Source: Nemertoderma westbladi
Taxonomy: Eukaryota; Animalia; Xenacoelomorpha
Reading direction: 5' to 3'
Assembly (NCBI GenBank): GCA_032718475.1
Contig: JAUCBJ010002048.1
Location: forward strand, 4,728-68,727
Length of the DNA: 64,000 nt
In this document: in pieces, positions 1,980-64,000 of the stretch
Layout of the letters: every line of letters begins with the position of its first letter
How positions within the stretch are numbered: the stretch's first letter is position 1
Made by a program: the position numbers and the translations under genes
The notes under the pieces: model-generated
Told to the model about the DNA's origin: nothing
The model's input: only the letters and a program-made list of their open reading frames with translations
The model's database searches: none

Positions 1980-3366
1980 GGATAGGCGAACATTTCTTGC
2001 AGTGAAAGTATTTCCATACCTGTTATAGTTTTTGAGATAGTCAGACATGAGTAGCTAAAATTTGATTTTTTTTTGGTGAAGTCTTATTTCACCGGTACCT
2101 ATCATCCGAAATATGGATTGTGATATATCGTTAGATGCGGGTCCACTATCTGTACATTCACATTTTTTCAAGAATAAAATTCGATCAAGAGTTTTCGAAA
2201 TATTTTCGAATTACCGGAAGCAGACTTTGGACGACTATATCTCCGGTACCGGTAGGCCTATTGAGTCGAAATTTTTTTTAATCTACTTGAACACTCCAGT
2301 GAATATTTTTTAGTTTGAAAGTTTTGCCCCAAAATGCTCAGAAGTAATTTGGAAAAAACTGATCATTTCGCGATCATGATCTTTTGACCCCCTAGAATTT
2401 AACTTTTTTATGGTCAAATTTTGGCTACCCCCCCTAATTCGAGGGTGTGGAATCTTTTTGTAATGTTAAGGTTTTTCATACGGTGAACTCACATGACTTA
2501 TGGTCTTCGAAATAAAACCGAAAACATGATCATTCCTGATCATGGCCTGATCAAATCACTTTTTGAAAATTTCGAAATGCTCAAAAGTTGCCCCTTCTTA
2601 ATAGAAGTCGATTAGTAAAAAAAAAATCGGGGGTCTCAAACAAAGTTTTCGAGAAAATCGGGAAAAACCAAAAAACATGATCTTTTATGATCAGGAAGCT
2701 GATCTCGAGAACCGGTTACCGATCGAGCCACTTTTTTTTAATCAACTCCGAATAGACCATTGAACATTTCTTACAATGAATGTTTATTAAAAAAATGCTT
2801 AGAGTCGATTTTAAATATACTGATCTTTTCGCGATCATGATCTTGAGTTTTGACCCACTGGACTTGAAACTTTTTTTATGCCCAAATTTTGGCTACCTCC
2901 CATAATTCGAGGGTGAGGAATCTTTTTGTGGTGTAAGTATAAGTTTTTCCATACAGTGAACTCCCAGGACTTGATCTTTGAAAAAAAACCGAAAACACGA
3001 TCTTTTCTGATCGCGGCCTGATCAAATCGCTTTTTGTAAATTTCGAAATGCTCAAAAGTGGCCCCTTCACCATAGAAGTCGATTCGTAAAAAAAAAATCG
3101 GGGGTCTCAAACAAAGTTTTCGAGAAAATTCTAAAAAACTGAAAAACACGATCTTTAATGATCAGGTATCAGATCTCGAGAACCGGTTGTTCGATTGAGC
3201 CAATTTTTATTTAATCGACTCAGGGCAGTGTTCTGAACGTTTCCTACAGTAATTGTTTATATCCAAAATGCTTAGTTACGATTTTACGAAGTCCGATCTT
3301 TGCGCGATCATGATCTTGCATTTTGATCAGGAAGAATTCACTTTTTTTAAATCTTTTAACGGGAAT
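1980..3366. mobile_element. Non-coding repeat (probable non-autonomous DNA transposon) with ~470-bp internal tandem units; left part, interrupted by the LTR element
   Basis: GATC.TT.CGCGATCATGATCTT recurs at ~2362, ~2822 and ~3296 with long colinear similarity. The same unit resumes after the LTR element at 21660 (GAATCTTTTTGTAATGTTAAG). Termini were not identified. Confidence 0.55.
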
Positions 3367-5521
3367 TGTTACGGTATATGGCGCTGTATCCACATATATT
3401 AGTCCGTTATACTGTACGCAATATTAGTCCGTTATACTGTATGTAATATTAGTCCGTTGTGCAGCATAATATTTTAGATAAGGCATAATAGCGCAGTGAT
3501 ATTTAGATAGGGAAACCAAAACGCCCATATATTTTGAATCCATCCATTTTGTATAATATGTAGCCCTACCTACGTAATTTTGTATTAGGATATATGTAGA
3601 TAGTTCCAGGGTAGCAAGTTTAGTCGGACCCTGGATTTCGTGCTTGCTGATATTAGCTTCAATAGGGCTAGCATATAGGGACGCTGTCCTGGCCATTCAG
3701 CAGCCAGGGACATGATCCATTACGATATATGGTAATAATTTGAGGTTTGGGCGGCAATAGGGCTACAATCCGGCCTCCTTATTGGACTAACTGCTTCCAG
3801 GTTGGTCTAATGCTAGCGCGGACTGGAGAGCCAATAGGAGAGCGATTGAGTCACCCTATTGCATCACCCCATCCGGATCACCTATAAATTGGCGGCTTGC
3901 CGGTAGAGCTGTACAACAACCCTATACCTTACAATCCACACCCTTATATTTTAGCGTATTTCTGCAATTTGCTAAATTTTGATTAATTTCTTAAGATGAT
4001 TTGCTAGTGCGATTATTCTTGATTGTGTTTCTCAATTAATCCCATCGATTACTGCTAATTACAACTGGAACTATGATTTCTACCTTTTGTTAATGGTTCT
4101 ATGTGATTCCTTTCTACGCAATAATCCTAAGGGATTTCTGAGACTGTCAGACTTTGTGATTTGCATGCGCCGCTACGGTAGCTATTAGCATAATGGAGGG
4201 CTAAGGTGCCAGTGGGCGGTGGGCACATCGGGGGGTTGAGCGACTAAGGGAGAGCGGAGGATTCAAAGGCGGGCAACGCTGGCGGGGGGTCACCGTTGCG
4301 GTCGGGCAGTTCACGCTGTGGTATGCAGACCATTCGCCGGTACGGTAATTAAGGGGCTGATGATCCAGGTTTCGTCTCTATTTAGTATTAGGGGGGCAGG
4401 AATCAGGTTAGTTAGGAGTCCTATATGTACCCGGGAGAGGCCTGCACGTATCACAACGTGGAGTGTGAAGTACGAATAGTGAGTCGCACAACTGTGGGCT
4501 ATACAGTAGTTAACTGCATAATTGCGAACTGTGATTGCTGACGCTGATTGGTGTGTTATTGAAGTGTGCCTACGATTGTGAATGTTTAGGTAGGTGCCCC
4601 CTTTCTTTGATTGATTTCTATTTCTTAGTTACAACAATTAGTTACTGATTAGGTCAAAGTAATACGGCAATTTAGGCTATTACTAGCGAAACCTGTTGCG
4701 TAATAAATTAGAATTACGCATTCTGGAACTCTTAGTAATTAGTACGCTGTTACATATTTGTGACTGTAATTGATTAGTAAAAAATTAAGAATTAGTATGC
4801 AGCATAGCGGAGAGTAGCTAAGGTAATAATTAGAGTACTGTAAACTATTCACGCTGAGCGGTTATTTGCATTGGCGGGCAATCAGCTAGATCGCACTATT
4901 CGGTACACACAACACGCTAGTAATTTGCTGGCCTAAAGCCAGCTGCAGGCAAGTTTAGACCCAGAGCGGAACTATCCACGTAGAGAAAAATACTGTACCA
5001 TTTTGATTATTTTAAATATTCTCGCATTCACACATTACGATAGGGAACCCCCAGTATTCGCGATTAGAAAAGGCGTAGGCAATAGCGTGCTTTAATAGTG
5101 ATAGAATTAGGCGTAAGAATACTCTGAGTGCAAAGCCTCTCGCACTCGTCTTAAGTAAGCTTAGGGAGCTGACTCGGGTTTATTGTTTTGGTTATTCCCG
5201 CGTGGCTCATAGATTCGAACAGTTAGCTCTCTATCGAGCAATCGGTAGAGAAAGGAACAAGCAATTTTGCAGGAGCTGTGTAAATTTAGTAAATTATATT
5301 AGCGGACGGCAGATAAGCGCCATCTAACGGTAAGTAGCGGTTTGTATTTAGCAACCCTTACAATTTAGCAATATCACGCTCCTGATCCCCTTTACTTAAC
5401 AGTAGAGCAGTCTTTGTGTCTTATTGGTTAGGCGAGAACTTATTAGGTTGGCAGAGGAGTATACGGGTATTTGTCTGTTCAACAGTTCTGCTGTTAGTAT
5501 AGAGGTCGCGGTTGTTTATCA
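3367..5521 (+). repeat. 5' LTR (2155 bp)
   Basis: Starts TG, ends CA; direct repeat of 19549-21654. Contains CCAAT/ATTGG boxes, TGAGTCA, TATAAA (3883-3888) and AATAAA (4702-4707). Confidence 0.95.
3780..3915 (+). promoter_or_regulatory. Candidate LTR U3 promoter (CCAAT boxes, AP-1-like site, TATA)
   Basis: ATTGG ~3781, CCAAT ~3831, TGAGTCA ~3847, TATAAA 3883-3888. Motif-based only. Confidence 0.45.
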
Positions 5522-5533
5522 GTGATACGTGCA
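5522..5533 (+). promoter_or_regulatory. Atypical primer-binding site, complementary to the element's own LTR (4443-4454)
   Basis: GTGATACGTGCA directly abuts the LTR-terminal CA and lacks the TGG of a tRNA PBS. Its exact reverse complement TGCACGTATCAC lies at 4443-4454 and 20612-20623. Confidence 0.6.
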
Positions 5534-6711
5534 TTGGCTGTAGGCAGTAGCGTACAGTAAATAGAGTATTCTTAGGCTGATTAGTAGTATCACAGTATTA
5601 AGTAATAAATTGGAGCACGTGATCGTCTGCTGTAGGCTATAGGCTAGCGTACAGTAAGACATTGAGTATATTCTTTTAGGCTGTTAGTTTAGATTACTGT
5701 ATTCACTGGCTGCGTACAATAGTACAGTAGTACATTAGGCTGATTGCTGTTACTGCGTACGGTAGAAGGACATTTGTTTGCCGTACCACACACAGTATCA
5801 ATTAGGCTGTTAGGTTGGTGTACTGTTTTACTTACTGTACTGCATACAGTGGATGTACGGTAGTGCGTTTTGCTAATTGCGAATACAGCAGTTCCTTAGG
5901 CCTTAGGGCAAACAGTAATTAGTAAGTTTTTTGAAAATTTTAGCTAGGTTTGCGAGAATTCAGTTTCGGTCAAAATTATTTGTAAAATTCTAGAGTTTTG
6001 TACCGGTATGTTAGGTAACCGCTTAGTTATTTTATACCATCTGGAGATACATGGCAAGACGGAACTTCTGAGTTTGGGGTTCGTGTGGGTCTGCGGGTTC
6101 GGTTTGCAATCAGCGAAGGGCCTGAATCTTTGGACGCGGACGTGGAATCTCACAGCAAACAAGGTTAGTTGTTCTGTTGGCACCATTGTGTTTGTGGAAG
6201 CAGTAAAAATTACCGGTTGTTTAACTGCGAAGCTGAACTCAATTTATTAGTTAGGATATTTAGGTTTAGCCGGCCATGGTTTTTTTGAATCGCTCAAGTT
6301 AGAGAGAGAGTTAGAGAGAGTCGCAACCCGAAGATGTAGCCACGCGCTAGTGGATACATATAATATTTGAAACTAAAATTACGTTGATTAGAGCTATATA
6401 TATATAAAATTAGAAATATTCGGGCGGCAAGTATATTTTGAATATTTTGTATTAGATTCAGAGTTATTTTGTGCTATACCGGTATTTAATGCTATATAAT
6501 AGCTATATAATAATATTTTTGTTTAAATATTGTGCTAGTATTTGCTATAACTATATACCCCATTAAATTCACAATATTGCATTGCGAATTTATTTGACAT
6601 TTGGACCAACTGATTATTTGACAAATAATTTGACCGTATTTCGGTTAAATTATAATCATATCTCGAACCTTTGCGAGATATTTTTGCCGGAAGGCAAACA
6701 TTATTTAGACT

Positions 6712-9700
6712 ATGAGTGTCTCAGACAAGGAGGCACTAGAGGACAGCTATGAGATGGCGGCTGGACCGCCGACTGACGATAGCGTCAATATTACTGTTGA
6801 CGACAATGCCGACTATGACGACGCAGCGAGCGACGCTGACGTAAGTGAACAGGAGGACGAGACAGTGACTAGTGAGGAAGAACAACAACCTCAAGTAATA
6901 GTATTAGGATCCCCTACCGCTACTGTAAGGAAGGACTGTACAGCAGCCCGGACAGAGGTGAGTGATAGGGAGGGTAGTGTAGCAGAAGCGAGAGCCCGGA
7001 GCCCGGTTTCCAGACCTGTGGGTATGGTAAGTGCCGTGGTCCCGACGGCTGTAAGGAGTACCCGTAGTTCCCGAAATAATCCTTCAAGTCCACCGAGTGT
7101 AAGTCAGGTAAGTGATAGAGAGTTCGACACTGCGATAAAGAAGAAACTTCGCGCGCACGCCGGACATATAACTTGGACGGCGGACAAGGTAAGGAAGATG
7201 TTAGCTGACTCAGCGAACATCGGGAGGGTAGAGTTAGCAGAGATTAGAAGAGGATATAACTCAGCGTTATTCAAGCAGACGGAGGAGCTTGCAGTCCTAG
7301 CGAAGAAGGCAGTAGAGTCTCAGTCGAGCGACGTGGCGACGAGGATTTACGATAGGGTTTTGGCAGCCCTGTTGGAGCACCGCGAGTTATCGGAGCGATT
7401 CCGACGAGTTAGGACGGAGAACTGGCTGCTATGGGCATCCCAAGCGCAGGCGACTCAAGTGAGTGACGCAGAGTTAAGAGACTTAGTGGAGCGAGAAGAG
7501 ATCCAGGATAAAGAAGAGCGCCGTTATCAGAGGGAAGTTACTAGCTGGCTGATGCAGAATGGAGTGGTGGTACCGGGTCAGGTACTACCGACGACGGAGA
7601 ACATCCAACAGAGGACGTTGACTCCACCCGACGACGCATCCAGAGACAGTGGCGATTCCCAGGTTAGTCACGCGCGAGGTAAGGTTATATGTGCTAGATC
7701 CCTTGTTTCGCACAACTCGGCGGAGGAGAGAAGACGCCGACTGGACGAACAGCAGGCGGAAGTTTTGCGTGCATCGGAAGCGCGGAAGGAAGCCGAGCGG
7801 GAACGGGAGCGAACACGTAAGTTAGACGCGAAGTTGCGCGAATTGGAAGATAAAGGTAAGAGTGAGCGAGCGGAACGCGTGCAGAAGGAACGTGAACTTC
7901 AACTTGAACGCGAACGCAAGGAACGTGAACTCGAACTTGAACGCGAATGCAAGGAACGCGAACTCGAACTTGAACGCGAGCAGAAAGAACGCGAACTCCA
8001 GCTCGAACGCGAACGCAAGGAACGCGAACTCCAGCTCGAACGCGAACAGAAGAAATGCGAACTCGAACTTGAACGCGAACGCAAGGAACGCGAACTCGAG
8101 ATCGAGAAGGAGCGACGGGCGTTGTATGAAGAGAAGGCGCGTGTGGAAGAAGAGGGCGCAGCGAGACGAGCGAGGGAAGAAGAAGAACGTAAACTGGCGC
8201 AGTTGGAAAGTGCGAGATTAAGTTTAGAGAGCGAAGAACGGACTAGGAAGGCGAACGAAATCGCCGAGAAGGGGATGCGAATGATCGAAGAATGTGGGGC
8301 GAGTGTAGGGACAGAGTTGCGAGAACTGTTCGCACTGCAGAAGGCCGAACAGGAAGCGAGAACTCCGGCTATACGCGAGTCGACGACGACCAGAATTCCT
8401 ATACCCGGTCCAGCTATTACGAGTACACGGATCGCTAAACCGTTCTCTACATATCGCACGCCAGTTGGTATTAGTGCTTCACCTATCGCCCAGGATCCAC
8501 GTCATCGGAACACCGCACCACTATACACCGAACGAGAGAATGAAGAATTTAGAGAAGAAACTCCGACGGGACGAGTATTTGGCGAACCGAACCCGCGGGT
8601 TTGGAATACGCGGACGGAGCGCCGACCCAGTTCGACGGAGAACTTCCGGGTTAAACCGGAAGAGGGATCATATGAGAGACAGCGGATTACTCAGATAGAG
8701 CCGACTATACAACAGAACCCTAGCCAGGAATTTATTACGAGGGATGAGTTAAGTGCTAGTTTAGCGCAAGCTATATCGCCGCACATCCAACCTATAACGG
8801 ACATGCTTAGCAACCTACGGTTAAAGGAAGCAGCCCAGGTAAGAAGTAATTCTAATCCTAGCAGGCCTGAGTTAGACAAAGTCCAGCCTAGTCAACGAGT
8901 ACGCATATCGGAGGAGACTATACCACATAGACCTCAGGTAAGGACGCCTGTCCCGAATATTCATAATCCCAATTTCGAAAATTCGGCCGAGAAATTTATA
9001 CAAGATGCTTGGGTCAGGGCCTCGGCGCGCAAACCATCGCGAGCGCTAAGGACTGACACAGAGTCAAGCGATGAAGAGGAAGAAATGAGACGTCAGAAGT
9101 CCCGAAACTATAAGGAAAGAAGGACCGACGCGGAGCAGGTAAGTTGGAACCACCGGGAAAGGACCAGACTTAACAACCCTGCGGAACTAAACCATTTGTT
9201 AACCCGCAACGACGCAACCCTTAGGGACATAGGTAAGTTTGCTGCTAGGCAAGGACTGCCGACGCAACAACCCCAGAAGTTTATGGGTAACCATAAGCAT
9301 TGGAGGACCTTCAAAACCTATGTCGACGAGCAGCTAACCAACAGCACCTTTACTCCCAACGAGAAGTTCAACTATTTGCTTCAGATGCTCCATCGAGAAC
9401 CTAGAGCCATTGCTGATAACTTCGTCGGCAATGAAAGAGCATTCGAGTTAGCGATGAAGACGCTTAGTGACATCTACGGGAATAAAACCAAGATGGCGCA
9501 GTCGATAGTAGAAGACTTGGGTAAGGGCGGAAGGATTACAACTCCGTTAGAGCTGTTGAACTTAGCGAACGCTATTTCGAACGCATTGGACATCTTGAGG
9601 ACGGTGAATCTACCTCATCATGGTGATCACGCCGAAGTTTTAAAGAGCGTAATAAGACGTCTAAACATGCGTTATCGACAGAAATGGCGCAAATTAGAAA

Positions 9701-10374
9701 ATAAGTTGGAGGGTCAAGGTAAGGTGTTGACACTTCAGCATATTCATGACATGATAGCCACAGACGCAGTAGCAGAGATGAAATCAAACTTCTCAGAGGA
9801 GAATATGAGGGAGTCTAAGCCTGTTACCGGTAAGTCTATGGTAAGTTTTGACGATGACAGGACCACTGTGACATTTAACTCAGTAGACAGATATAATTCG
9901 AGTACCCTAGCCTTTAGATCAGACTCGCGAGTATGGTCAGGTGAGCGGTTAGATAGACCTAGGTTAAAGCAACAGGAGTTGCCGGATGGATTTGTAGGTT
10001 GCCAATACTGTTTACTAAAGGAGGTAAGATCTGACGATCATAAGTTAGATAGTTGCAGACGGTTCAAAGAATTAAATTCGGAACAGAGAAGAGTTCAAGT
10101 GCGGACGTTGGACACCTGTTGGGCATGTCTTGCGCCAGGCCATGTACGGCGGCAGTGCCCGAACAGCAAGGACGGATGCATGGAATGCGGCAGACTACAT
10201 CACAAGTTGCTACATGCGGATTTCCACACCCCAATGGACCGTTACTTACAGCGAAATCCTCACAGGAAGGGGAGCAAAGAACCCATATCGATAAGGAGGA
10301 ATACGTATACCGGCATTCAGGATGATGGTTACCAACCAGGTTCATCGGATGAGGATGGCGAGTCGAGCGCGTGA
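6712..10374 (+). CDS. BEL/Pao Gag (coiled-coil region, DUF1759-like capsid region, Cys/His motifs)
   Basis: 1220-aa ORF. PQKFMGNHKHWRTF...EKFNYLLQML (DUF1759-like). C-terminal CQYC...H.LDSC, CWACLAPGHVRRQC and CMECGRLHHKLLH are typical of BEL/Pao Gag. Confidence 0.9.
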   Translation: MSVSDKEALEDSYEMAAGPPTDDSVNITVDDNADYDDAASDADVSEQEDETVTSEEEQQPQVIVLGSPTATVRKDCTAARTEVSDREGSVAEARARSPVSRPVGMVSAVVPTAVRSTRSSRNNPSSPPSVSQVSDREFDTAIKKKLRAHAGHITWTADKVRKMLADSANIGRVELAEIRRGYNSALFKQTEELAVLAKKAVESQSSDVATRIYDRVLAALLEHRELSERFRRVRTENWLLWASQAQATQVSDAELRDLVEREEIQDKEERRYQREVTSWLMQNGVVVPGQVLPTTENIQQRTLTPPDDASRDSGDSQVSHARGKVICARSLVSHNSAEERRRRLDEQQAEVLRASEARKEAERERERTRKLDAKLRELEDKGKSERAERVQKERELQLERERKERELELERECKERELELEREQKERELQLERERKERELQLEREQKKCELELERERKERELEIEKERRALYEEKARVEEEGAARRAREEEERKLAQLESARLSLESEERTRKANEIAEKGMRMIEECGASVGTELRELFALQKAEQEARTPAIRESTTTRIPIPGPAITSTRIAKPFSTYRTPVGISASPIAQDPRHRNTAPLYTERENEEFREETPTGRVFGEPNPRVWNTRTERRPSSTENFRVKPEEGSYERQRITQIEPTIQQNPSQEFITRDELSASLAQAISPHIQPITDMLSNLRLKEAAQVRSNSNPSRPELDKVQPSQRVRISEETIPHRPQVRTPVPNIHNPNFENSAEKFIQDAWVRASARKPSRALRTDTESSDEEEEMRRQKSRNYKERRTDAEQVSWNHRERTRLNNPAELNHLLTRNDATLRDIGKFAARQGLPTQQPQKFMGNHKHWRTFKTYVDEQLTNSTFTPNEKFNYLLQMLHREPRAIADNFVGNERAFELAMKTLSDIYGNKTKMAQSIVEDLGKGGRITTPLELLNLANAISNALDILRTVNLPHHGDHAEVLKSVIRRLNMRYRQKWRKLENKLEGQGKVLTLQHIHDMIATDAVAEMKSNFSEENMRESKPVTGKSMVSFDDDRTTVTFNSVDRYNSSTLAFRSDSRVWSGERLDRPRLKQQELPDGFVGCQYCLLKEVRSDDHKLDSCRRFKELNSEQRRVQVRTLDTCWACLAPGHVRRQCPNSKDGCMECGRLHHKLLHADFHTPMDRYLQRNPHRKGSKEPISIRRNTYTGIQDDGYQPGSSDEDGESSA
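7885..8105 (+). repeat. In-frame 33-bp minisatellite in gag (ERELELERERK x ~6.5)
   Basis: AAGGAACGCGAACTCGAACTTGAACGCGAACGC units are visible and translate to an 11-aa E/R/K/L repeat. Confidence 0.85.
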
Positions 10375-10410
10375 GAAGTGACCTGCCAAGGTTTCACCGC
10401 GGATAGTTAA

Positions 10411-12966
10411 CCGACCAGCGCGCGGACGTATTTATCATCGGCCACGTCGGAAATATTTAGCGTGATTCCGGTGAAACTCACTGGCGATAAGGGATCGAAG
10501 AGAATATATGTGATGTTGGACACTGCGTCCACATTATCCTATATCGACGAGGAAGTGGCGAGAGCCGTTTCTAGCTTCCAGGACGCCGAGGAGATCCAAA
10601 TAGAGTTGAAGTCTATGCACGGGGTAGGAGACCTCAAGGGACACAGAATTTCGGTAGAACTAGATTCCCTACTTCCGAGAGACCAACATACTCGACAAGA
10701 ACGGAAAGCTTTGCCATTGGACGGATTTAAGTGTCTAGCTATGAAGGGATTCGGCAGGCAGTTAGGTAAGGTGCCGCCGATGAGTCCCATAGCACAGGAG
10801 TATTTTGACAAGCTCAGGATACCCAGACACCAGGTAGGTTATAGGAATGTTTCTATGTTGATTGGTGCAGAGCAGCTGATCGCACACCAGATATGGGAAA
10901 CGAGACCAGCTGAGCCGCATGTCAATGGACCACATGCCCATAGGACTATATTAGGTTGGTATACACGAGTACCCATGTCTTATGAGTTTACAGGTGGCGA
11001 CAAGCCAATGAACAGATACGATGAATTACGGCCTATAACTCAACCACCGTTAGTAGAACCACCAGACATAGACGAGTTTAGGAGAACCTGTATTGACCAC
11101 TATAGTGACTTTAGCGAGTCGGACGAGGAGTTGATTCCCGATAATGTTAGGTTGTCGGAACCACTTCATAACGACCGGACAGATAGTGAACCCGAGGACT
11201 ACTGTTATCAGACCCGTGGGTCTGGTTCAGCGGCCCACGCTACCTATTTGACTAACGTTTTGACTTATACTGACATAGTGGAGGGTCAGGTGGCTAAATA
11301 TCGAGACCTAGACATTTTCCAATACAGTGAGGAGGAGCTACAGAAGGAATTGATACGCCAGGACCTCGAGACAGGAGCCAGAACCGTCGAATGGCTGGAT
11401 AGGGACGCAATGGAACCCGGTGGATATGACCTAGCCATGTCTACTAATGAGAAACGGTCGCTGGAGATGATGGAAGACACCATACGTCTACTACCGACTG
11501 GACATTTTGAAGTTGGAATGTTGTGGCGTCGACAACCACCTAAGTTGGAGAACAACTATAACTTAGCCTTGAAAAGATTAAACGGAGTAAGGGCTCGGTT
11601 GTTAAGGAATCCGAACATTAGGGAGAAGTATTGCGCCCAGATCAACAACTATTTCGCTAAGGGATTTGCTGGGAAGGTAGAGGTCCCTGACTTAGTGACA
11701 GACCAGACTTATTACCTTCCACACCAATATGTGACTCACCCTGACAAGCCAGACAAAGTCCGAGTAGTCAACGACTGCGCAGCAGTCTATAGAGGTATGT
11801 CCCTGAATTCAGAGTTGATGGACGGACCCAACCTGAATAATTATTTGATTGGAATACTGTTGCGTTTTAGACAGCGGCGATTCGCATTTACTTGTGACAT
11901 CGAGGCGATGTTCCACCAGGTAAGAGCCTGTAAGGCAGACCAGGATAGCCTTCGCTTTCTCTGGTACGAGAATGAAGACCTATCCGGCCCAGTGGTTAAA
12001 TACCAGATGTACGTTAGGATATTTGGCGCCCGCGATAGTCCAAACGGCACGCTGTTTGTTCTAAAGAAAACGGCAACAGCCCAGATTGGTAAGTATCCAG
12101 TAGAGGTAATCGAGTCCATCTTGAGAAACTTCTATATGGACGACGGATTGGTGTCCAAGGACACAGAGGAACAAGCCATAGAAGTGGCTCACGGCCTGCA
12201 AGAGTGCTTGGCTACAGGGGGTTTTCCTCTGACCAAGTTCACTACAAACTCGGAGGCCCTATTAGAGTCGTTCCCGGTAAAAGATCGCGGGAGCGGAGAC
12301 ATTGAATTGGGGGTAGAACCAATCCCCATGGCGCGAGTACTGGGACTCGCTTGGAATCCGAACTCAGATAAGTTCCAGGTAAGAGTTAGATTTGAGCCCA
12401 GTAGCCCAGACAAAGTTTTGACAAAGAGGATTTGCTTATCGACATTAAGTAGACTATTTGACCCGATGAACTTTATCAGTCCGGTTATATTACAGGCACG
12501 AGCGTGCATGAGGAAAATTTGGTTGTCCGACGTAGAGTGGGACGAACCAATATCTCCTATACATGCAAAGCAGTGGAGGGAGTGGGAAGCTGAGTTGCAT
12601 CTATTGAAAAATATAGACGTACCCCGTTCCTACTTTCCGAATCAGCTGGTATTCCCAGCTGATCTCGAACTCCATCTGTTTAGTGACGCAAGTGACACCG
12701 GCTTTGGTATGGTAGCCTACCTTCGCCGAGAGGTAAGTCAGGACAAGTTTGAGACGGCTTTTGTGACTTCTAGATCAAAGACAATGCCGGTCAAATACAT
12801 GACTGTCCCTCGTGCAGAGTTACAGGCAGCTGTAGTTTCAGTCGAGGTAAGTAAGCAAATAACAGAGGAGTTAGACACGACATTGACCTTATTCTATTGG
12901 ACGGACGCATCCTTGGTGTTAGTATACATTGCGGCCGACAATATCCAATATCGAAACTTCCATTAG
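10411..12966 (+). CDS. Pol part 1: aspartic protease, reverse transcriptase, N-half of RNase H
   Basis: MLDTAS protease motif. RT motifs YYLPHQ.V, KVRVVNDCAA, DIEAMFHQV, FGARDSP and FYMDDG. RNase H motifs LHLFSDAS, TVPRAELQAA and FYWTDA. Open from 10411 in the gag frame; no ATG start. Confidence 0.9.
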   Translation, partial: PTSARTYLSSATSEIFSVIPVKLTGDKGSKRIYVMLDTASTLSYIDEEVARAVSSFQDAEEIQIELKSMHGVGDLKGHRISVELDSLLPRDQHTRQERKALPLDGFKCLAMKGFGRQLGKVPPMSPIAQEYFDKLRIPRHQVGYRNVSMLIGAEQLIAHQIWETRPAEPHVNGPHAHRTILGWYTRVPMSYEFTGGDKPMNRYDELRPITQPPLVEPPDIDEFRRTCIDHYSDFSESDEELIPDNVRLSEPLHNDRTDSEPEDYCYQTRGSGSAAHATYLTNVLTYTDIVEGQVAKYRDLDIFQYSEEELQKELIRQDLETGARTVEWLDRDAMEPGGYDLAMSTNEKRSLEMMEDTIRLLPTGHFEVGMLWRRQPPKLENNYNLALKRLNGVRARLLRNPNIREKYCAQINNYFAKGFAGKVEVPDLVTDQTYYLPHQYVTHPDKPDKVRVVNDCAAVYRGMSLNSELMDGPNLNNYLIGILLRFRQRRFAFTCDIEAMFHQVRACKADQDSLRFLWYENEDLSGPVVKYQMYVRIFGARDSPNGTLFVLKKTATAQIGKYPVEVIESILRNFYMDDGLVSKDTEEQAIEVAHGLQECLATGGFPLTKFTTNSEALLESFPVKDRGSGDIELGVEPIPMARVLGLAWNPNSDKFQVRVRFEPSSPDKVLTKRICLSTLSRLFDPMNFISPVILQARACMRKIWLSDVEWDEPISPIHAKQWREWEAELHLLKNIDVPRSYFPNQLVFPADLELHLFSDASDTGFGMVAYLRREVSQDKFETAFVTSRSKTMPVKYMTVPRAELQAAVVSVEVSKQITEELDTTLTLFYWTDASLVLVYIAADNIQYRNFH

Positions 12967-14594
12967 TTAGCGGACAACCGTCGCTGGCATTAGAGTCATG
13001 CAGTATTTATGACAAATTACTAAATTCGTCTGCCTCTTGGCTGACAATTTGTAAAAGAACTGCGTGGTTAAGCCGATACGTTTCGTACCTTTGTATAAAA
13101 CATTTGAAACATTTGAGAGAACCATCGAGCGCTAATAGTGAGCGAATTCAGAAATTGAAACAACCTCTGACAGAGGATGAGATTGATCAAGCGGAATTAA
13201 AGCATTTGAAACATTATCAAATGTGTGCCTTCCCAAAAGAATTCCATCTATTATCGGCTCAACGACCAGTTCTCTATAAACCCCTTAGAAAATGGAGTCC
13301 ATTAATCCATAAGGGTTTAATTTGTCATAGATCGAGAATCCAGACTGTCGACATAAACTCACAGTTTCGGTTCCCAGTGATAATCCCTAGTCACCCAATA
13401 GAATTGCAAAGAGCGATTCTATGGGATATACACAAGAGGTTGCATCACGCGGGAAGGTTACACTGTTTGTCGGCAGCGAGACAGCGATTCATTCTATTGC
13501 AGCCAAGCAGGGCAGTAGGCACTATGTACGACGCCTGTCTGGTTTGCAAGAGAGTGAACGCCAGAGTATTGGAACAGGAGATGGCTGAACTCCCGGAAGC
13601 GAGAGTGCAGGCATATGACCCACCCTTTACGAACACAGGGGTGGATTGTTTTGGTCCGATTGAAGCAAAGAGTGGACGGCTGACCCACAAGCGATGGGGT
13701 CTGCTACTGACATGCATGGCTAGTAGAGCCATACACATTGAGCGTGTGGCAGACATGTCGACCAAATCTCTGCTCCTGGCCTTGAAGAGATTTATGGCCA
13801 GGAGAGGACTAGTAAAGGCGTTCTACTCCGATAAGGGTACAAACTTTGTCAGAGGGAATAGCGAGTTGAACGCGGCTCATAAAGCGGCACAGAATAAGGA
13901 AATTTCTGCAGCACTTTTGCCGCAAAGAGTAGAGTGGAGATTTAATACTCCAGAAAGTCCTTGGAGAGGAGGAAGTTGGGAGCGTTTAGTTCGCTCTGTA
14001 AAGCAGGCCATTGCCAAAACATTGCCTGTAAACAAACAACTTACCGACGACGAACTGGTCACAGCTTTCATTGAAATCGAGCATACCCTAAACTCGAGGC
14101 CGATAGCTATGTTGCCAGACGGTGTTGCATTAACGCCGAATCATTTGCTAATGCAGAGTCCAGCATTTCTTGTGCCGGCATCAGAACCCATTAGTGCCGA
14201 CCTATATAGTCGTAAAGGCTGGAAAGTAACACAATTTGTCGCGTACACATTCTGGGAATATTGGCGGGAATACTATCTTCCCACCATATCTACCAGAACA
14301 AAGTGGTACAAAACGGTTCGGAGTCTCCAAAGGGGAGATTACGTACTGATAACCGAGCCGATTGTCAAGAGAAAGTACTGGGAGACGGGAGTGATCTTGC
14401 ACACACACCCAGACGTGCAAAACATAGTGCGCACAGTCACTGTGAAAATTATGTGCAAGTGTCCGCACCCAAAAAAGTGTAAAACTAATGGTTTACACAC
14501 CTTGGACCGACCGGTCCAAGATATCGTGTTATTAGAGGAGACACGTATCGAGACGGGAGATTATAATTTGTCTCCTGCCTCAAAACAGAATTAG
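12960..14594 (+). CDS. Pol part 2: integrase (frame-shifted from part 1 by an internal deletion)
   Basis: H-x3-HHAG...CLVC zinc finger. PFTNTGVDCFGP, SDKGTNF and GGSWERLV form the DDE core. LTPNHLL and a C-terminal RPVQDIVLL follow. Confidence 0.9.
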   Translation, partial: PLVSGQPSLALESCSIYDKLLNSSASWLTICKRTAWLSRYVSYLCIKHLKHLREPSSANSERIQKLKQPLTEDEIDQAELKHLKHYQMCAFPKEFHLLSAQRPVLYKPLRKWSPLIHKGLICHRSRIQTVDINSQFRFPVIIPSHPIELQRAILWDIHKRLHHAGRLHCLSAARQRFILLQPSRAVGTMYDACLVCKRVNARVLEQEMAELPEARVQAYDPPFTNTGVDCFGPIEAKSGRLTHKRWGLLLTCMASRAIHIERVADMSTKSLLLALKRFMARRGLVKAFYSDKGTNFVRGNSELNAAHKAAQNKEISAALLPQRVEWRFNTPESPWRGGSWERLVRSVKQAIAKTLPVNKQLTDDELVTAFIEIEHTLNSRPIAMLPDGVALTPNHLLMQSPAFLVPASEPISADLYSRKGWKVTQFVAYTFWEYWREYYLPTISTRTKWYKTVRSLQRGDYVLITEPIVKRKYWETGVILHTHPDVQNIVRTVTVKIMCKCPHPKKCKTNGLHTLDRPVQDIVLLEETRIETGDYNLSPASKQN

Positions 14595-15365
14595 TGTTGG
14601 ACGCAACTCACTTCGTATGCATTCCTCGTATGCAAATACAAGGAAATGCATAGGAGCGGGGTTGTGGTGACTTGCGTTGAGTTTTGTCTGGTGGGTATCA
14701 AAACGAAATTTTATTTTCAAAAATTTTGGAAAATTTAAAATTTTAAAAATTAGAAGTGAACCCAAGACAATTCCAGACGCTGTGTATAGACGCGTTTTAG
14801 AATTCGTCTATAGATATACAGTAATTTGAAAAGTCGTGAAGCCTGGAAAATAGCATTTAGAAACCATGGTGACGGCTATATTACGTAGGAGTGTAAATTG
14901 AGTTTAGCAACTTCCACAGATTGGTGCCAACAGTGCAACTAAGGTGCTAAAGGTTAGTAGCACCAGGGGCGTACATGGACCCCACTCAGTAGTTTGCAGG
15001 ATGTGTGATGTTCGATTATCAAACCTGTGGGTTTGGTATAGTCGGGTATTGTGGCTATGGTCCTTTCTAACTACTGTAGTTTAGTACGAGTGATGGGAGT
15101 AGTTTGGGCATCAAAAAGTGAGTTGGTCACGGCCAGTTTATCTCCAAAGTTTTGCGCTATGCATGGGAATAGGTTAGAGGATAGTTAGTTAGGAAGAGAC
15201 GGGATCTAGAGAGTCGAACCTGAACTGCTGGAAGGCGGGGGGGGGGGGGGGGGGGGGGTTCGGGAGGTCTGTCTTTCGGCGACATCTAACTGATTTACCC
15301 ACAGTGTAATTGGTTACGTAACGGCACTTATTGGGATATATATATATGTATATACGCGAGGCATA

Positions 15366-18300
15366 ATGGAGAAGGATATTAGAGCGCAACCGCGCAGAGG
15401 ATTTACTGCCAGAGAGGAGGCGGAGCTACCATTCGCGCGACCAGGATGTAAAGACTCTAACGTTTACTACCATGGGCGGTCCGTGATGGAGCTAAACGGA
15501 AAATATAAACCGACTTATGATAAGGAATTACGGAGGGAAAGAATGAGAGCGTTGGGGGACCGGATGGAAGTTTTGCGGAGAGAGTATCGCACGCGGTATC
15601 CCTACGACTTCGCTTTGGACGTATGTGACATTAGTGCAGACCCGGATGAGGAGATCGCACGACTGTACCATATGAATATGTATTTACGACACGAAGAACC
15701 TCTACCTGCAATCCGAGATCAGTTCGACGGAATGCATCTATACCGGAGGACTCGAGGCGAGGATCAGGAGACGCCGAAAGTCTTCAGCGTGTACAAGCTG
15801 TTCTACAAGTGTGGTGAATGCATGAATAAGCAAGACGTGGCGATTCCCGATCGACTAGACGAGCAACATCCGGAACCGATATTAACGCGATGTCCAGCTC
15901 ACCAGTTCCTTAGATACAACGAGGGAGGTTACCCGATGAGCAACCCGATGATCAGTATCGACTTCAGCGGAAAGCGACCTCCGAGACCCATTACGCCGAC
16001 CGTTACGACATTAGATCCGTATACGGAGATTAAACCCTGTTCGACACCCAGTTTGATAGAGACGGCAGCGGCCATTTCGCTGTACCGAGCCTACAAGGAT
16101 CTAGAGGCGCGGCGCGAAGCGGCGCGGGACTCGGGTACCAAACCCGCGGGTTTGGAGCTCTCGAGTCCCTGGACTGCGTTTACTTCACCTCACCGAGCGA
16201 GAAGCCTCACGCCTGAGCATCAGGACGACATAGACGCGTTGCGGCAGGAGGAGCGAGCGGCGAAGGCGAAAGAGTTATTTGAGAATCGGATAGCGGAGTA
16301 TAATAAGACCGCGGATAGACATCAAGAGGAGACGAGGAGAGTGACCGGATTTGTTCCACAGGTCGTATCTCAACCCCGACCGGTGTATTATTCCGACGGC
16401 ACCGAACCTGCGATATTAGTAGATCATCCGGAGTCGCGAGAAGCGATACGATTCTTGCCGATGGTAAGAATGGCGGATCATTGGAACGTTGACTGTCTAC
16501 GGGAAGTTTTATGCGCGAAGTTCTTGCGTGATGTCCCAATGCAGATCACAGATTACGACACATTGGATAAGATTGGAGCTCCGGGGAAGGAGAGTAAATT
16601 ATTTGGATGGTTGGATAAGTACATCAAGGTATGGGTCGCGGTGGCTACATTCCCAGACGACGAGGAGGTAGACCAGACGTGGCTGAGGAGGAAGGGTTCT
16701 TATACCCGATATGATGACCACAAGGCTATCGAGCGCATGTGGACCCCATCAGACGAGATTCAGCGTCAGTGGAGGAAAACGGAGGAATCACTGCAGGATT
16801 GGAGGGTGATGTTCTACGACAATGAAGGAGGGTCCCATCAAGAATGTTTGACTAGCAAGTGTATTCAAATTCGTGCAGCCGATGGTGTGACTCATGTGTT
16901 TATGCGTGTGAGGGCGGATCGAGAGAGACCGGAGCCCATCATAACGACACAATATCGGAAGGGGAAGGATCCTAGGGAGCAGATTTTGGAGGTATGCAGG
17001 CGAGGAGGTATGCACGGAGCGGAGCGTATCGACGCCAGGATGCTACCCAAGAAAGTTAGAGAGGCTATTCTCAACCAAGATTACGTCAAGGTGGGATCGG
17101 GAGTCCAGAGCGATTTGGAGAGCGACTTCAACGCCATGACTGATCTGGAAGATAGATTGCCGAGACCGTTTGTCGACACCAAGCTATTGTTGCTATGGGC
17201 ACAGGATATTGGAATTTATAGGGAGTATCCCAACTCTGCCAAGACTGGTATGGGCTTTATAGCACACTTGTTGTATAATTGGGACTTTAAGTTAAAGACG
17301 CAGAAGAAGTACGAGGAGGCGTATGGCGAATACAACACGCCACCGGGAGCGGAGTTCAAATCCCACTTCAAGCGGCAAGCGTTAGTGTATTGGAACATTT
17401 GCGCGCCACCCCGTGCGTCGCTACAATATTATTTGGTGCTTGAGTCGAACACGGTGACTTGTTTATTAGCGGATATCGTTGCGCGAGTTTTGAAGCGTCA
17501 TCCATTGGTATTCGGAGGAGATCAATACGTTCGCTCGAAAGGGGGAATCCAATCCGACGTGATGAAGCGTTTCTTAACCCCGTTCTTCAACCAATCGTTA
17601 GAGAATACGTCGATGGTTAGGAGAGGATTAGCGATATTCCAAGGAGTATATCGACAGAACATCGGAGATTTGGGAGACCGACCGTCGATGGAGTATCCGA
17701 CGCCAGAAGCTTTGGAGAAGTGGTTCGGGAATCAAACCCGCGGGTTTCGTACTCCCTTCCACTCGGAGGCTGATAGACCTGTTAAGGAGGGCTGGCCGGA
17801 GACGTTAGTAGAGGTGTTCGGAGTAGATCTTCCGGTGGAGAAGACATATCCGAAACGAACGCGGGAGGAAATATTGGAGATAGAGGACAAGGGCGAGGAT
17901 GTTTACTTTGTTCCGGATCGACAACCGTTGACCGGAGAGGACGACATCGTATTAGACATTGGGAAGGAAGGAAGTGCGAAACCGATTGGAGACCTCATAT
18001 ACGAGAGGGCCTGGTTTCCACAAGCGCGTAGGTGCAAATTGTGCGGCAGCACAAGGCACAATCTAAAGTCGTGCGACGCGGTAGTAGAGGCGGCGCATAA
18101 GGTCTGTCGTTGGTGTAATGAGACCGACCATTCGTTTCACACGTGCACCGTCTTCATTTCTCAATGTGGATATTGTGGGGTAAAGGGACATCGTAGCGCG
18201 AGATGTCAGCTGCGAGATGATTCCTTTCAAAACCATAGCGCTAACCTACTTCGGGAGATGTTAGATAAGTGGGAGAGTGTGGCTGATTACCATATTCAAG

Positions 18301-19073
18301 CGCAGATGCGTTGGTTACCATTTAAGGCGGGATATGGATTTTGGGCGGTAGACCCATCGCATGTTGCGTACGAGCCATATCTACAATCGCTACCACAATA
18401 TCAGGAACTCATCCTAACTGCTCAAGACCTTCCACAGAACACTGGAGTTATCGTAGTCCGAGAATACTTCAGACAATTGAATATGGATAACAAGTACACC
18501 TGGAACTTCGTTGCTATTTGCGATCGCATCACGAAGGGTGTATTTACGGAGACTAGAAAAGTGGTACGCGCGCGAGGTGAATGGAGGATGGCGGCTATAC
18601 AATACCGCAACGAATTCTTGTTGACTCATGTGCCAGTGGGTTCATTGACCGCTGAGAGGATACAGGGACAGAGGATCGCAGCGACCACAGCGACGACCGC
18701 TGGAGCTCAAGGCTCGCGGAAAGAACCAGGAGGAGGGGTCCACGACAAGCGTCAAGTCAAGGACGACCACTATCACTCTATTATAGAAGCACAGAGGTTG
18801 CAGCGCAAGGCGCAGGGAGCGTCGGAAAAAGCGCGTGTGCAACTGCATAAGGAAGAGTTGGCGGAAGCGACCACGGGAGCACGACAATTGGGACGAGGCC
18901 GAGGAAGAAGCACGAGCCGGGAATCTGTCGGGGCTCAGGGAACATCGTCGCCGGTTCCGGGGAGTGATGCCTCACGGATGCCGTCAACGGAGTCGACTGG
19001 AGGACGACTGGTGTATCTGGGGAGGGGGCGAAAGAGAGGAGCGAGCCCAAAGAACCCAGGAGCGGGTCGATAA
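15366..19073 (+). CDS. ORF3: DEDDy (WRN/RNase D/EXD-like) 3'-5' exonuclease domain plus three CCHC zinc knuckles
   Basis: 1235-aa intact ORF. ExoI VMFYDNEG followed by CIQIRAADGVTHVF. ExoII LPKKVREAILNQDYVKVGSGVQSD and FVDTK. ExoIII YWN..PP..SLQYYLVLE. Knuckles CKLCGSTRHNLKSC, CRWCNETDHSFHTC and CGYCGVKGHRSARC (18033-18206). Domain call is by motif recognition. Confidence 0.75.
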   Translation: MEKDIRAQPRRGFTAREEAELPFARPGCKDSNVYYHGRSVMELNGKYKPTYDKELRRERMRALGDRMEVLRREYRTRYPYDFALDVCDISADPDEEIARLYHMNMYLRHEEPLPAIRDQFDGMHLYRRTRGEDQETPKVFSVYKLFYKCGECMNKQDVAIPDRLDEQHPEPILTRCPAHQFLRYNEGGYPMSNPMISIDFSGKRPPRPITPTVTTLDPYTEIKPCSTPSLIETAAAISLYRAYKDLEARREAARDSGTKPAGLELSSPWTAFTSPHRARSLTPEHQDDIDALRQEERAAKAKELFENRIAEYNKTADRHQEETRRVTGFVPQVVSQPRPVYYSDGTEPAILVDHPESREAIRFLPMVRMADHWNVDCLREVLCAKFLRDVPMQITDYDTLDKIGAPGKESKLFGWLDKYIKVWVAVATFPDDEEVDQTWLRRKGSYTRYDDHKAIERMWTPSDEIQRQWRKTEESLQDWRVMFYDNEGGSHQECLTSKCIQIRAADGVTHVFMRVRADRERPEPIITTQYRKGKDPREQILEVCRRGGMHGAERIDARMLPKKVREAILNQDYVKVGSGVQSDLESDFNAMTDLEDRLPRPFVDTKLLLLWAQDIGIYREYPNSAKTGMGFIAHLLYNWDFKLKTQKKYEEAYGEYNTPPGAEFKSHFKRQALVYWNICAPPRASLQYYLVLESNTVTCLLADIVARVLKRHPLVFGGDQYVRSKGGIQSDVMKRFLTPFFNQSLENTSMVRRGLAIFQGVYRQNIGDLGDRPSMEYPTPEALEKWFGNQTRGFRTPFHSEADRPVKEGWPETLVEVFGVDLPVEKTYPKRTREEILEIEDKGEDVYFVPDRQPLTGEDDIVLDIGKEGSAKPIGDLIYERAWFPQARRCKLCGSTRHNLKSCDAVVEAAHKVCRWCNETDHSFHTCTVFISQCGYCGVKGHRSARCQLRDDSFQNHSANLLREMLDKWESVADYHIQAQMRWLPFKAGYGFWAVDPSHVAYEPYLQSLPQYQELILTAQDLPQNTGVIVVREYFRQLNMDNKYTWNFVAICDRITKGVFTETRKVVRARGEWRMAAIQYRNEFLLTHVPVGSLTAERIQGQRIAATTATTAGAQGSRKEPGGGVHDKRQVKDDHYHSIIEAQRLQRKAQGASEKARVQLHKEELAEATTGARQLGRGRGRSTSRESVGAQGTSSPVPGSDASRMPSTESTGGRLVYLGRGRKRGASPKNPGAGR

Positions 19074-19548
19074 TACATCATAGCACAGGGCGACAGACTC
19101 TAGATATATACATCATCGTCGCTCTGATGTATATTGTAGCATTTAGAAATCTTCGACTAGACTCATATACACTAGTTGAGCTGTTTTGAATTTATATTAT
19201 GAGAGAGGCGAAGGAAGTGATTGGGGAGACAAACCTGCGGGTTTGGCTTACTCCTTTCACTTGCCCTAGCAAATTTTTTTATATATATTTGATTTTGTAT
19301 GTAGTAATCATTATGTAGTACGAACGAGAAACAATATTTGTAAATTTAATTTGAATGAGAGAGATAATATTTGTAAATTTAATTTGTATGCAATTCATTA
19401 TGCAATATCTATAGCAATATTTTGTAAATAGTAGGATTTATAGTATCAAGTATTTAGATTATTTGGAAGAAATTTATTTTGTTTGTATACATCACCTTAT
19501 ACTCTTCTACAGTTGGAGGGAAACATTATATGATTTCCCTTGGAGCGG

Positions 19549-21654
19549 TGTTACGGTATATGGCGCTGTATCCACATATATTAGTCCGTTATACTGTACG
19601 CAATATTAGTCCGTTATACTGTATGTAATATTAGTCCGTTGTGCAGCATAATATTTTAGATAAGGCATAATAGCGCAGTGATATTTAGATAGGGAAACCA
19701 AAACGCCCATATATTTTGAATCCATCCATTTTGTATAATATGTAGCCCTACCTACGTAATTTTGTATTAGGATATATGTAGATAGTTCCAGGGTAGCAAG
19801 TTTAGTCGGACCCTGGATTTCGTGCTTGCTGATATTAGCTTCAATAGGGCTAGCATATAGGGACGCTGTCCTGGCCATTCAGCAGCCAGGGACATGATCC
19901 ATTACCATATATGGTAATAATTTGAGGTTTGGGCGGCAATAGGGCTACAATCCGGCCCCCTTATTGGACTAACTGCTTCCAGGTTGGTCTAATGCTAGCG
20001 CGGACTGGAGAGCCAATAGGAGAGCGATTGAGTCACCCTATTGCATCACCCCATCCGGATCACCTATAAATTGGCGGCTTGCCGGTAGAGCTGTACAACA
20101 ACCCTATACCTTACAATCCACACCCTTATATTTTAGCGTATTTCTGCAATTTGCTAAATTTTGATTAATTTCTTAAGATGATTTGCTAGTGCGATTATTC
20201 TTGATTGTGTTTCTCAATTAATCCCATCGATTACTGCTAATTACAACTGGAACTATGATTTCTACCTTTTGTTAATGGTTCTATGTGATTCCTTTCTACG
20301 CAATAATCCTAAGGGATTTCTGAGACTGTCAGACTTTGTGATTTGCATGCGCCGCTACGGTAGCTATTAGCATAATGGAGGGCTAAGGTGCCAGTGGGCG
20401 GTGGTTGAGCGACTAAGGGAGAGCGGAGGATTCAAAGGCGGGCAACGCTGGCGGGGGGTCACCGTTGCGGTCGGGCAGTTCACGCTGTGGTATGCAGACC
20501 ATTCGCCGGTACGGTAATTAAGGGGCTGATGATCCAGGTTTCGTCTCTATTTAGTATTAGGGGGGCAGGAATCAGGTTAGTTAGGAGTCCTATATGTACC
20601 CGGGAGAGGCCTGCACGTATCACAACGTGGAGTGTGAAGTACGAATAGTGAGTCGCACAACTGTGGGCTATACAGTAGTTAACTGCATAATTGCGAACTG
20701 TGATTGCTGACGCTGATTGGTGTGTTATTGAAGTGTGCCTACGATTGTGAATGTTTAGGTAGGTGCCCCCTTTCTTTGATTGATTTCTATTTCTTAGTTA
20801 CAACAATTAGTTACTGATTAGGTCAAAGTAATACGGCAATTTAGGCTATTACTAGCGAAACCTGTTGCGTAATAAATTAGAATTACGCATTCTGGAACTC
20901 TTAGTAATTAGTACGCTGTTACATATTTGTGACTGTGATTGATTAGTAAAAAATTAAGAATTAGTACGCAGCATAGCGGAGAGTAGCTAAGGTAATAATT
21001 AGAGTACTGTAAACTATTCACGCTGAGCGGTTATTTGCATTGGCGGGCAATCAGCTAGATCGCACTATTCGGTACACACAACACGCTAGTAATTTGCTGG
21101 CCTAAAGCCAGCTGCAGGCAAGTTTAGACCCAGAGCGGAACTATCCACGTAGAGAAAAATACTGTACCATTTTGATTATTTTAAATATTCTCGCATTCAC
21201 ACATTACGATAGGGAACCCCCAGTATTCGCGATTAGAAAAGGCGTAGGCAATAGCGTGCTTTAATAGTGATAGAATTAGGCGTAAGAATACTCTGAGTGC
21301 AAAGCCTCTCGCACTCGTCTTAAGTAAGCTTAGGGAGCTGACTCGGGTTTATTGTTTTGGTTATTCCCGCGTGGCTCATAGATTCGAACAGTTAGCTCTC
21401 TATCGAGCAATCGGTAGAGAAAGGAACAAGCAATTTTGCAGGAGCTGTGTAAATTTAGTAAATTATATTAGCGGACGGCAGATAAGCGCCATCTAACGGT
21501 AAGTAGCGGTTTGTATTTAGCAACCCTTACAATTTAGCAATCGTCTTTGTGTCTTATTGGTTAGGCGAGAACTTATTAGGTTGGCAGAGGAGTATACGGG
21601 TATTTGTCTGTTCAACAGTTCTGCTGTTAGTATAGAGGTCGCGGTTGTTTATCA
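19549..21654 (+). repeat. 3' LTR (2106 bp)
   Basis: Copy of 3367-5521 with a 13-bp and a net 36-bp deletion plus ~4 substitutions seen by eye. Preceded by a short purine-rich TTGGAGCGG and a hairpin AGGGAAACAT...ATGATTTCCCT. Confidence 0.95.
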
Positions 21655-22060
21655 GGAATCATGGCTAATGTGGGGTCGCTGAATCTTTTTGTAATGTTAA
21701 GTTTTTCGATTGGGGCAAGCCTTGAGTGTCCGAATCCTGATCAAAACTGATCTTTGCTGATCATGGTCAAGATCATGATCTGATCGCTCCAAAAAAGTCT
21801 TTTTTAAGGTAAATCCATATGCTGCCTATCGATTGGCGCCGGTTCCAAGTCCGTAGCATTAGCGGTTCTAGAGATCGACGCATAGCAACGAGGTTGCTAG
21901 GGAAGCGGACTTTTTGACTCAAATTGGCCCTAGACGGAGAACCGTAGACATTTGAAACGTAATGTATATGGGAAAAAGTCTTCTGGATAAATTTTTTTTT
22001 TGGGGGGGGGGGGGGTCTAGGAACATCCTATTGTTGGTTTTCGCTTAGTTTCTGAGAAAA
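21655..22060. mobile_element. Continuation of the host repeat split by the LTR insertion
   Basis: GAATCTTTTTGTAATGTTAAG and GATCATGATC motifs match the 2200-3360 units. Confidence 0.5.
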
Positions 22061-36115: not shown

Positions 36116-37579
<1,464 letters not shown>

Positions 37580-63722: not shown

Positions 63723-64000
63723 TACAGTGAATAGTACAGGCTGACAGGACAGGCAGACAGCAGGACAGGTGTAGGCGATAGACCTAGCACTGTACTGCTG
63801 TAGTTGGCCTACTGCAGTATTCTTGCTATTGTAGTGGGCCTACAATAGTTCAGTAGTTTATAGTAACTGTTAGTGTAGTAATTTATATAGCTACCGGTCA
63901 GCCGGTACCTGGGTACAGTCGTACAGTACAGACCTGCAGATTACAGGATTTACACTACCGCTACTGCTGTACTGGCTACCGTAGTTCTTCTTTTCTTACA

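Follow-up and report, generated by a model that had tools for sequence, protein, structure and literature searches.

The 64,000-nucleotide stretch of Nemertoderma westbladi DNA analysed here (the window; contig JAUCBJ010002048.1) contains an 18.3-kb long terminal repeat (LTR) retrotransposon of the BEL/Pao type at 3367-21654. The transcript of this element carries two complementary arms, one in the leader and one in the spacer behind pol (6062-6284 and 14859-14995), which are predicted to pair over ~90 bp. The strongest helix of this duplex starts at 6165, which is position +2 of a donor-like splice site, and contigs of one public sequencing run, X5, leave the element at the same place. We propose that the duplex is a clamp that hides the likely splice donor 6163/6164 and thereby balances unspliced gag-pol and genomic RNA against a spliced mRNA for ORF3, the open reading frame (ORF) that follows pol. 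We give this reading a probability of roughly 0.4.

A preliminary description of this DNA had joined nine nested stems into one structure that reached the end of pol. All nine stem pairs are present in the sequence and are nested. When 5850-6712 and 14520-15120 are cofolded by partition function, five of the nine pair with the claimed partner at a mean probability of 0.88-1.0 (5' sides 6068-6085, 6165-6185, 6191-6200, 6232-6246, and 6274-6282), whereas the inner stems (6661-6666, 6647-6657, and 6538-6545) and the outer stem (5912-5922) have a pair probability of 0.0. The inner stems fail because their bases are taken by strong local hairpins (6625-6712, z -6.3; 14545-14600, z -3.1). With these stems at zero, the duplex reaches neither the last pol codons nor the point ~45 nt before the gag ATG, where its inner end had been placed. 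The local structure comprises three tight hairpins a short way ahead of the gag ATG (6625-6700, z -6.3) and a pol-end hairpin with a palindromic loop (14550-14583, z -3.1), all possible dimer or translation signals.

The duplex that stands is about a quarter of the claimed length. Its core (6050-6300 with 14850-15010) gains -61.0 kcal/mol on cofolding, compared with -9.0 ± 4.4 kcal/mol for shuffled sequences, and none of 100 shuffles is as good. Specifically, the intron-side part (6164-6300 with 14850-14942) gains -59.3 kcal/mol (0/100 shuffles), while the exon-side part (6062-6092 with 14967-14995) gains -16.9 kcal/mol and is weakly significant (4/100). The claimed inner and outer parts are no better than shuffles, with gains of -3.4 and -1.3 kcal/mol that 92 and 98 of 100 shuffles, respectively, equal or exceed. 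The core loop (6285-14858, 8.6 kb) encloses all of gag-pol, as had been described. Side hairpins had also been described between the stems; the one at 14942-14968 holds (0/200 shuffles), but those at 6198-6232 (20/200) and 6088-6165 (56/200) do not stand out from shuffles.

Each arm is the best partner of the other in the whole transcript, with a score of -86.7 against a mean of -48.8 ± 7.2 (328 tiles) and, in the reverse scan, -83.9 against -39.7 ± 6.7 (330 tiles). The arms are thus complementary boxes that pair beyond chance, as is characteristic of long-range structures that modulate splicing. In a control of 561 tile pairs, the duplex tile ranks third by raw score. The top pair, 8317-8916 with 15967-16566, was rejected; it is driven by two copies of a palindromic hairpin, with z -3.3 compared with -6.4 and -8.2 for the duplex tiles (seven pairs shuffled). 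Among 3003 DNA tile pairs, the top one, U3 with the leader, was dismissed as AT-rich, and its score lies within block shuffles (66.7 versus 50.9 ± 6.6, maximum 71.1).

The predicted duplex covers the likely donor. Its bases +2 to +9 (6165-6172) have 14935-14942 as their partner with a probability of 0.69-1.0, and the site takes 8.7 kcal/mol to open when the 3' arm is present, compared with 6.0 kcal/mol in its absence. In run X5, four of seven contigs (records 19, 20, 22, and 24) diverge into unlike sequence at 6163-6166 and one continues straight; the branching contigs represent up to three variants of the leader. The 12 loose ends shown for X1 and X3 all lie outside 6163-6166, divergent copies in these runs can be aligned as far as 6171-6180, and X4 reads across the donor-like site. 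A branch at a donor consensus in a single run is what splicing would give. The far sides of the X5 branches appear not to belong to this element and could stem from exons of the host or from ORF3 regions in diverged families; the three loose ends shown have no match, by eye, to the sequence behind the candidate acceptors. The depth of X5 over the element is uneven, with empty pol bins where X1 and X3 are deep, as would be expected of an RNA run, although gaps in cover are given no weight here. In X5, the leader (6134-6166) is joined at the donor-like site to at least three different unlike sequences, possibly as chimeric transcripts with host sequence.

The preliminary description had favoured selected RNA structure over a decayed DNA inverted repeat, on the ground of many G-U wobbles on the sense strand and of side hairpins in the intervening bits. 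The G-U bias is real: a wobble-blind DNA alignment of the core contains 101 matches, nine G-U and no A-C mismatches, and nine other mismatches (P about 0.017 after base composition). The strand asymmetry in energy is modest. The sense strand folds better than the antisense in the core (-61.0 versus -45.5 kcal/mol) and in the intron-side part, but the wider regions of the preliminary description favour the antisense (-40.5 versus -35.6 kcal/mol). Variation within the family, read from contigs of the public runs over 6000-6320 (25 variant rows at 23 positions, none hidden), leans towards selection on RNA. Five variants fall on long-range paired positions, and four of them keep the pair, two by changing G-U to Watson-Crick. 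The four variants at a frequency of at least 10% in 6164-6285 all lie off the 66 paired positions (P 0.04). Over 6000-6320 there are 3-4 common variants where ~15 are expected from the element average (P 3e-4 and 6e-4), a deficit that weakens to P 0.03-0.06 if the LTR held half of all variants. With the counter-evidence below also weighed, it is probable that the duplex is a functional RNA structure.

A number of observations weigh against the clamp. The donor is partly paired even without the 3' arm, which adds 2.7 kcal/mol of protection. X5 is labelled 'DNA?' and has no library record, and its contigs are strandless. Of the 93 joints, 15 are shown, and none of these connects 6163 with a place in 3360-19548; the long pieces of X5 on the element do not include the longest of the branch contigs (1914 nt). 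A splice to ORF3 was thus not observed. On the structural side, the antisense of the intron-side part is nearly as stable as the sense (-51.6 versus -59.3 kcal/mol), and in helix-chain score the two strands depart equally from their null (z about -4.2 and -4.9). The variation data cover the 5' arm, differences near contig ends being unlisted, and three variant rows break pairs (6085, in single contigs; 6073, twice, at a helix end). The variation tests are marginal and post hoc (P 0.29 for 6000-6320, 0.047 for 6060-6285, and 0.135 for 6164-6285), and the four of four transitions that keep pairs give P 0.057. Lastly, the distant loci that could be compared do not show the conservation that the preliminary description had named as a test. 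Among 80 metagenome BEL/Pao loci, of which 41 have gag and the pol end located and 12 have enough flank, the pairing is present in 0 of the 12, though none of the 80 carries this ORF3. Helix-chain z at these loci, where gag starts are rough, ranges from -2.0 to +1.4 compared with -7.0 in the window, and alignment z reaches 3.1 compared with 5.2. In viral and prokaryote collections, no relatives with genomic context were found.

Part of this record suits a decayed inverted repeat, in which ~130 nt of the leader would have been copied in reverse to a place behind pol, through a template switch or during repair, in the ancestor of the family, leaving a functionless trace. Watson-Crick matches alone carry the signal (-78.0 versus -39.5 ± 5.8), the antisense folds almost as well, the pairing is missing from 12 of 12 distant loci, and the family variation was read on one arm. 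Against such a repeat speak the 9:0 bias of G-U over A-C, an insertion in the 3' arm (14943-14965) that is itself a perfect hairpin, copy variants that avoid or keep pairs and are rarely common in 6000-6320, and the coincidence of the helix edge with the donor. We consider it improbable that the duplex is such a relic.

Retroelements must keep most of their RNA unspliced while expressing 3' genes, and the solutions to this balance known to us are local structure or proteins. In the proposed clamp, X5 would be RNA and its branch would be splicing. Lying 9 kb into the transcript, ORF3 needs an expression route, and the donor would join an acceptor just before ORF3, for which 15304 is the best candidate; 14999, 15079, 15084, and 15149 are other candidates by motif. 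The donor would be made early, while the 3' arm would be transcribed ~360 nt before the candidate acceptor and could pair before the spliceosome commits. If the 3' arm paired first, the RNA would stay unspliced and serve as genome and gag-pol message; otherwise the donor would be joined to ORF3. With helices on both sides, the donor would be enclosed in a junction and less accessible to U1. In copies or transcripts without the 3' arm, the donor would be free to splice to other sequence downstream. The likely origin of the arms is an inverted copy, which selection then kept. PMC5408684 describes spliced messages as the typical source of ORF3 expression in LTR elements. Separately, a TTTAG directly ahead of the gag start (6703-6711) could be a near acceptor that would define a 545-nt leader intron.

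Long-range intronic stems that mask splice sites or bring them together are described in Drosophila (Raker et al. 2009, PMC2724269). The element resembles them in having far-apart complementary boxes that could mask a site or join two sites, with kinetic competition during transcription. The Drosophila stems, as described there, lie in host genes, use short boxes, and are backed by 12-species conservation and mutagenesis, whereas the duplex here has ~90 bp, belongs to a retrotransposon, spans 8.6 kb of coding sequence, and is predicted from sequence. The comparison raises the converse of a clamp, namely that the duplex helps splicing: it would place the donor no more than ~370 nt from the ORF3 acceptor although the intron measures 9 kb, with only an outer 8-bp helix to be opened for U1. 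The intron-side helices run from the donor to a point 360 nt short of the 15304 candidate, a U-U mismatch at 6173 divides the donor helix from the remainder, and bridging of this kind is documented for Nmnat in the same report. Against such a bridge, the donor itself is paired, and the exon-side helices would enclose the donor and be useless to a bridge, although these helices are only weakly significant. We regard splicing promoted in this way as unlikely, though slightly less so than an inverted-repeat relic.

Zychlinski et al. 2009 (PMC2794156) describe how RNA structure attenuates the splice donor of murine leukemia virus (MLV). Like MLV, the element is proposed to limit U1 access to a leader donor by structure and thus to keep genomic RNA unspliced. 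Unlike the local stem-loop upstream of the donor described for MLV, the masking strand here is placed 8.8 kb downstream, shortly ahead of the putative acceptor.

Intramolecular pairing over several kilobases of retroelement RNA has precedents in Ty1 CYC5/CYC3 (PMC7969010), where it is described as serving replication, and in the gag-U3R pairing proposed for HIV-1 (PMC1976439). By this analogy, the duplex could exist only in unspliced RNA, which holds both the leader intron and the spacer, and could mark the genome for Gag, compact it, or aid strand transfer, with the overlap with the donor being secondary. Sitting 3' of the donor, the strong 5' arm would be lost from any spliced RNA, and the seven dispersed hairpins presented below suggest an RNA-wide recognition system. 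However, the pairings reported for Ty1 and HIV-1 join the 5' region to the 3' terminus, whereas the partner here is internal and ORF3 stays outside the loop. Because the 3' arm lies 4.6 kb before the 3' LTR and the U3-leader pairing does not exceed block shuffles, the duplex is not a terminal cyclization of the Ty1 or HIV-1 type; the 5' arm, moreover, is 0.5-0.8 kb from the primer site. A mark of full-length RNA is the foremost of the alternatives, but still a doubtful one.

The preliminary description had left it open whether the loop controls splicing, translation, or packaging. Splicing is favoured by the donor-like site under the strongest helix and by the X5 branches. For translation, the layout of the upstream ORF recalls the caulimovirus shunt described in PMC5902531, in which a short ORF ends just before the base of a large stem; ribosomes that terminate at 6071 would jump the stem base and reach ORF3 on unspliced RNA. 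The ORF here is not 5'-proximal, as 13 ATGs lie between 3912 and 6050, the loop holds coding RNA over 8.9 kb, and from the stem base on the landing side to the ORF3 start there are seven ATGs; splicing upstream or a later start could take such ATGs away. The shunt fails on these two counts, position and intervening ATGs, and is very improbable. A survey of the open-access literature, by titles and the opening parts of abstracts, with subscription journals outside its scope, returned no report of such a duplex in BEL/Pao elements.

Table 1. Coordinates of the element, of the duplex arms, and of the associated signals in the window
Feature	Position	Strand	Remarks
Target-site duplication GGAAT, 5 bp	3362-3366 and 21655-21659		flanks both LTRs
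5' LTR	3367..5521	+	TG...CA ends; TATAAA 3883; AATAAA 4702
LTR segment complementary to primer-site position, 12 nt	4443..4454	+	2/2000 shuffled LTRs
Primer-binding-site position	5522..5533	+	no TGG start; complementary 12/12 to 4443-4454
Upstream ORF, 6 codons	6051..6071	+	ends 4 nt before G-C-rich helix at 6076
5' arm, exon side	6062..6092	+	pairs with 14967-14995; weaker part
Donor-like site AAG/GTTAGT	6161..6169	+	exon end 6163 (6163/6164); consensus 8/9, best outside LTR
5' arm, intron side	6165..6284	+	helices 6165-6185, 6190-6200, 6232-6247, 6267-6284; 66 paired positions
gag ORF	6712..10374	+	1220 codons; DUF1759 E 2.4e-9
Seven dispersed hairpins, YGYG loop, 5-7 bp stem	starts 7010, 8587, 11208, 15019, 16138, 17732, 19229 (span 7010..19246)	+
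pol first frame, protease-RT-RNase H region	10411..12966	+	Peptidase_A17 E 1.7e-39
pol second frame, integrase	12855..14594	+	Integrase_H2C2, DUF5641
3' arm to 6165-6284	14859..14942	+	cofold
Side hairpin between the two 3' arm segments	14943..14965	+	perfect hairpin; z -3.2, 0/200 shuffles
3' arm to 6062-6092	14967..14995	+	cofold
Candidate branch point CTAAC 15286 and acceptor CAG 15304, before ORF3	15286..15304	+	motif scans only
ORF3	15366..19073	+	1235 codons; putative DEDDy/EXD2-like exonuclease-type region and three zinc knuckles
3' LTR (19549-21654) with polypurine-tract-like GGAGCGG ahead	19542..21654	+

The element has the direct TG...CA LTRs and the target-site duplication of BEL/Pao elements. 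Its two LTRs differ at five positions (2101 matches in 2106 aligned bases) and by two indels; with so few differences, the insertion is young. The domains DUF1759, Peptidase_A17, Integrase_H2C2, and DUF5641 occur in this order, with the integrase after the reverse transcriptase (RT) and RNase H as in the Pao type, and on this basis the element is assigned to BEL/Pao. Database matches of pol have 26-41% identity, and PF05380 occurs in 14 of 19. Two in-frame stops keep gag and pol apart, pol changes frame near 12.9 kb in the present copy, and the spacer between pol and ORF3 is 771 nt long. The family is abundant in the public DNA runs, with 27,576 contigs matched in X1 and 11,896 in X3. A variant with a 329-nt deletion early in ORF3 (15511-15841) is present in X1, X3, and X5. 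Rfam gave no match across 3300-21700, and a tRNA gene search of the window found none.

The seven YGYG hairpins are spaced by 1.1-3.8 kb, fall in all three codon phases, and within the window occur in the element only. Their 10-base core occurs seven times, compared with a mean of 0.007 in 300 shuffles, and in 30 shuffles no comparable pattern occurred more than 3-4 times. All four copies that lack symmetry are in the sense orientation, and one copy has a compensated G-C pair. The core was found in none of the 80 distant BEL/Pao loci. These features make the hairpins candidate dispersed packaging signals. A weak eighth hairpin lies at 6085-6102.

BEL/Pao elements usually have a tRNA-type primer site after the 5' LTR. 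The position in question is instead complementary to the element's own LTR, as in self-priming of the Tf1/Sushi type. In that type the complementary segment is the 5' end of the transcript; the sole TATAAA found here lies 560 nt upstream of 4443. From the complementarity, self-priming in this BEL/Pao element is possible. Primer sites complementary to the LTR are described for self-priming elements in PMC6317226.

ORF3 has no Pfam match. A search of 1.84 billion representatives returned eight relatives at E up to 0.001, and a profile of six of these matches ORF3 in two regions. A profile of seven relatives matches EXD2 (E 0.00096; 0.0041 with ORF3 included) as well as Lin28 and nucleocapsid knuckles, and the ESM Atlas points to PF01612 (0.85 and 0.91). 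The motif VGS..D is aligned with the relatives, while FYDNE and Y..LE, which we take to be the Exo I-like and Exo III-like motifs, were picked by eye. Structure models are poor (predicted local distance difference test, pLDDT, 33.8 and 42.8), and Foldseek found no match with them. A good lead, from these profile and motif matches, is that ORF3 encodes a DEDDy-type exonuclease with three zinc knuckles. The ORF3 family is small; one of nine cluster members listed is named, as 'hypothetical protein'. Word searches found nothing further, and the ORF3 alignments are too divergent for a scan of loci. An exonuclease-like ORF after pol, in place of env, is also described for the bdelloid elements Juno and Vesta (Rodriguez et al. 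2017, PMC5408684); those belong to other LTR lineages, whereas the present ORF3 belongs to BEL/Pao, has 1235 codons, and carries three zinc knuckles. Ahead of ORF3 are a long G run (15237-15259) and a 6-codon ORF (15346-15368) whose stop overlaps the ORF3 ATG (TAATG).

Outside the element, the window contains large tandem arrays: a 16-bp repeat, for which 307 copies are reported, at approximately 28194-33500, a 9-bp repeat at approximately 36100-37600, and a short repeat rich in purines at approximately 22900-25100. It also contains an uninterrupted N-myristoyltransferase ORF (62148-63839, - strand; Pfam NMT and NMT_C), two RVT_1 fragments of other retroelements (43707-44990 and 53072-53872, both - strand), and a 226-bp inverted repeat that resembles a miniature inverted-repeat transposable element (38372-38868).

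The element adds an ORF3 with exonuclease-like and knuckle regions to BEL/Pao, together with leads on dispersed packaging hairpins and self-priming. These parts could, improbable as we consider it, form a self-contained RNA architecture undescribed for retroelements, in which the spacer before ORF3 would lock the donor over 8.8 kb so that only complete transcripts stay unspliced, the YGYG hairpins would be packaging marks for the zinc knuckles, reverse transcription would be self-primed, and the spliced ORF3 protein would act on these RNAs. If the clamp itself is real, a masking strand kilobases away and just before the acceptor would amount to a length-sensing, timing-based control of splicing, and truncated copies are predicted to donate a strong leader exon to host sequence.

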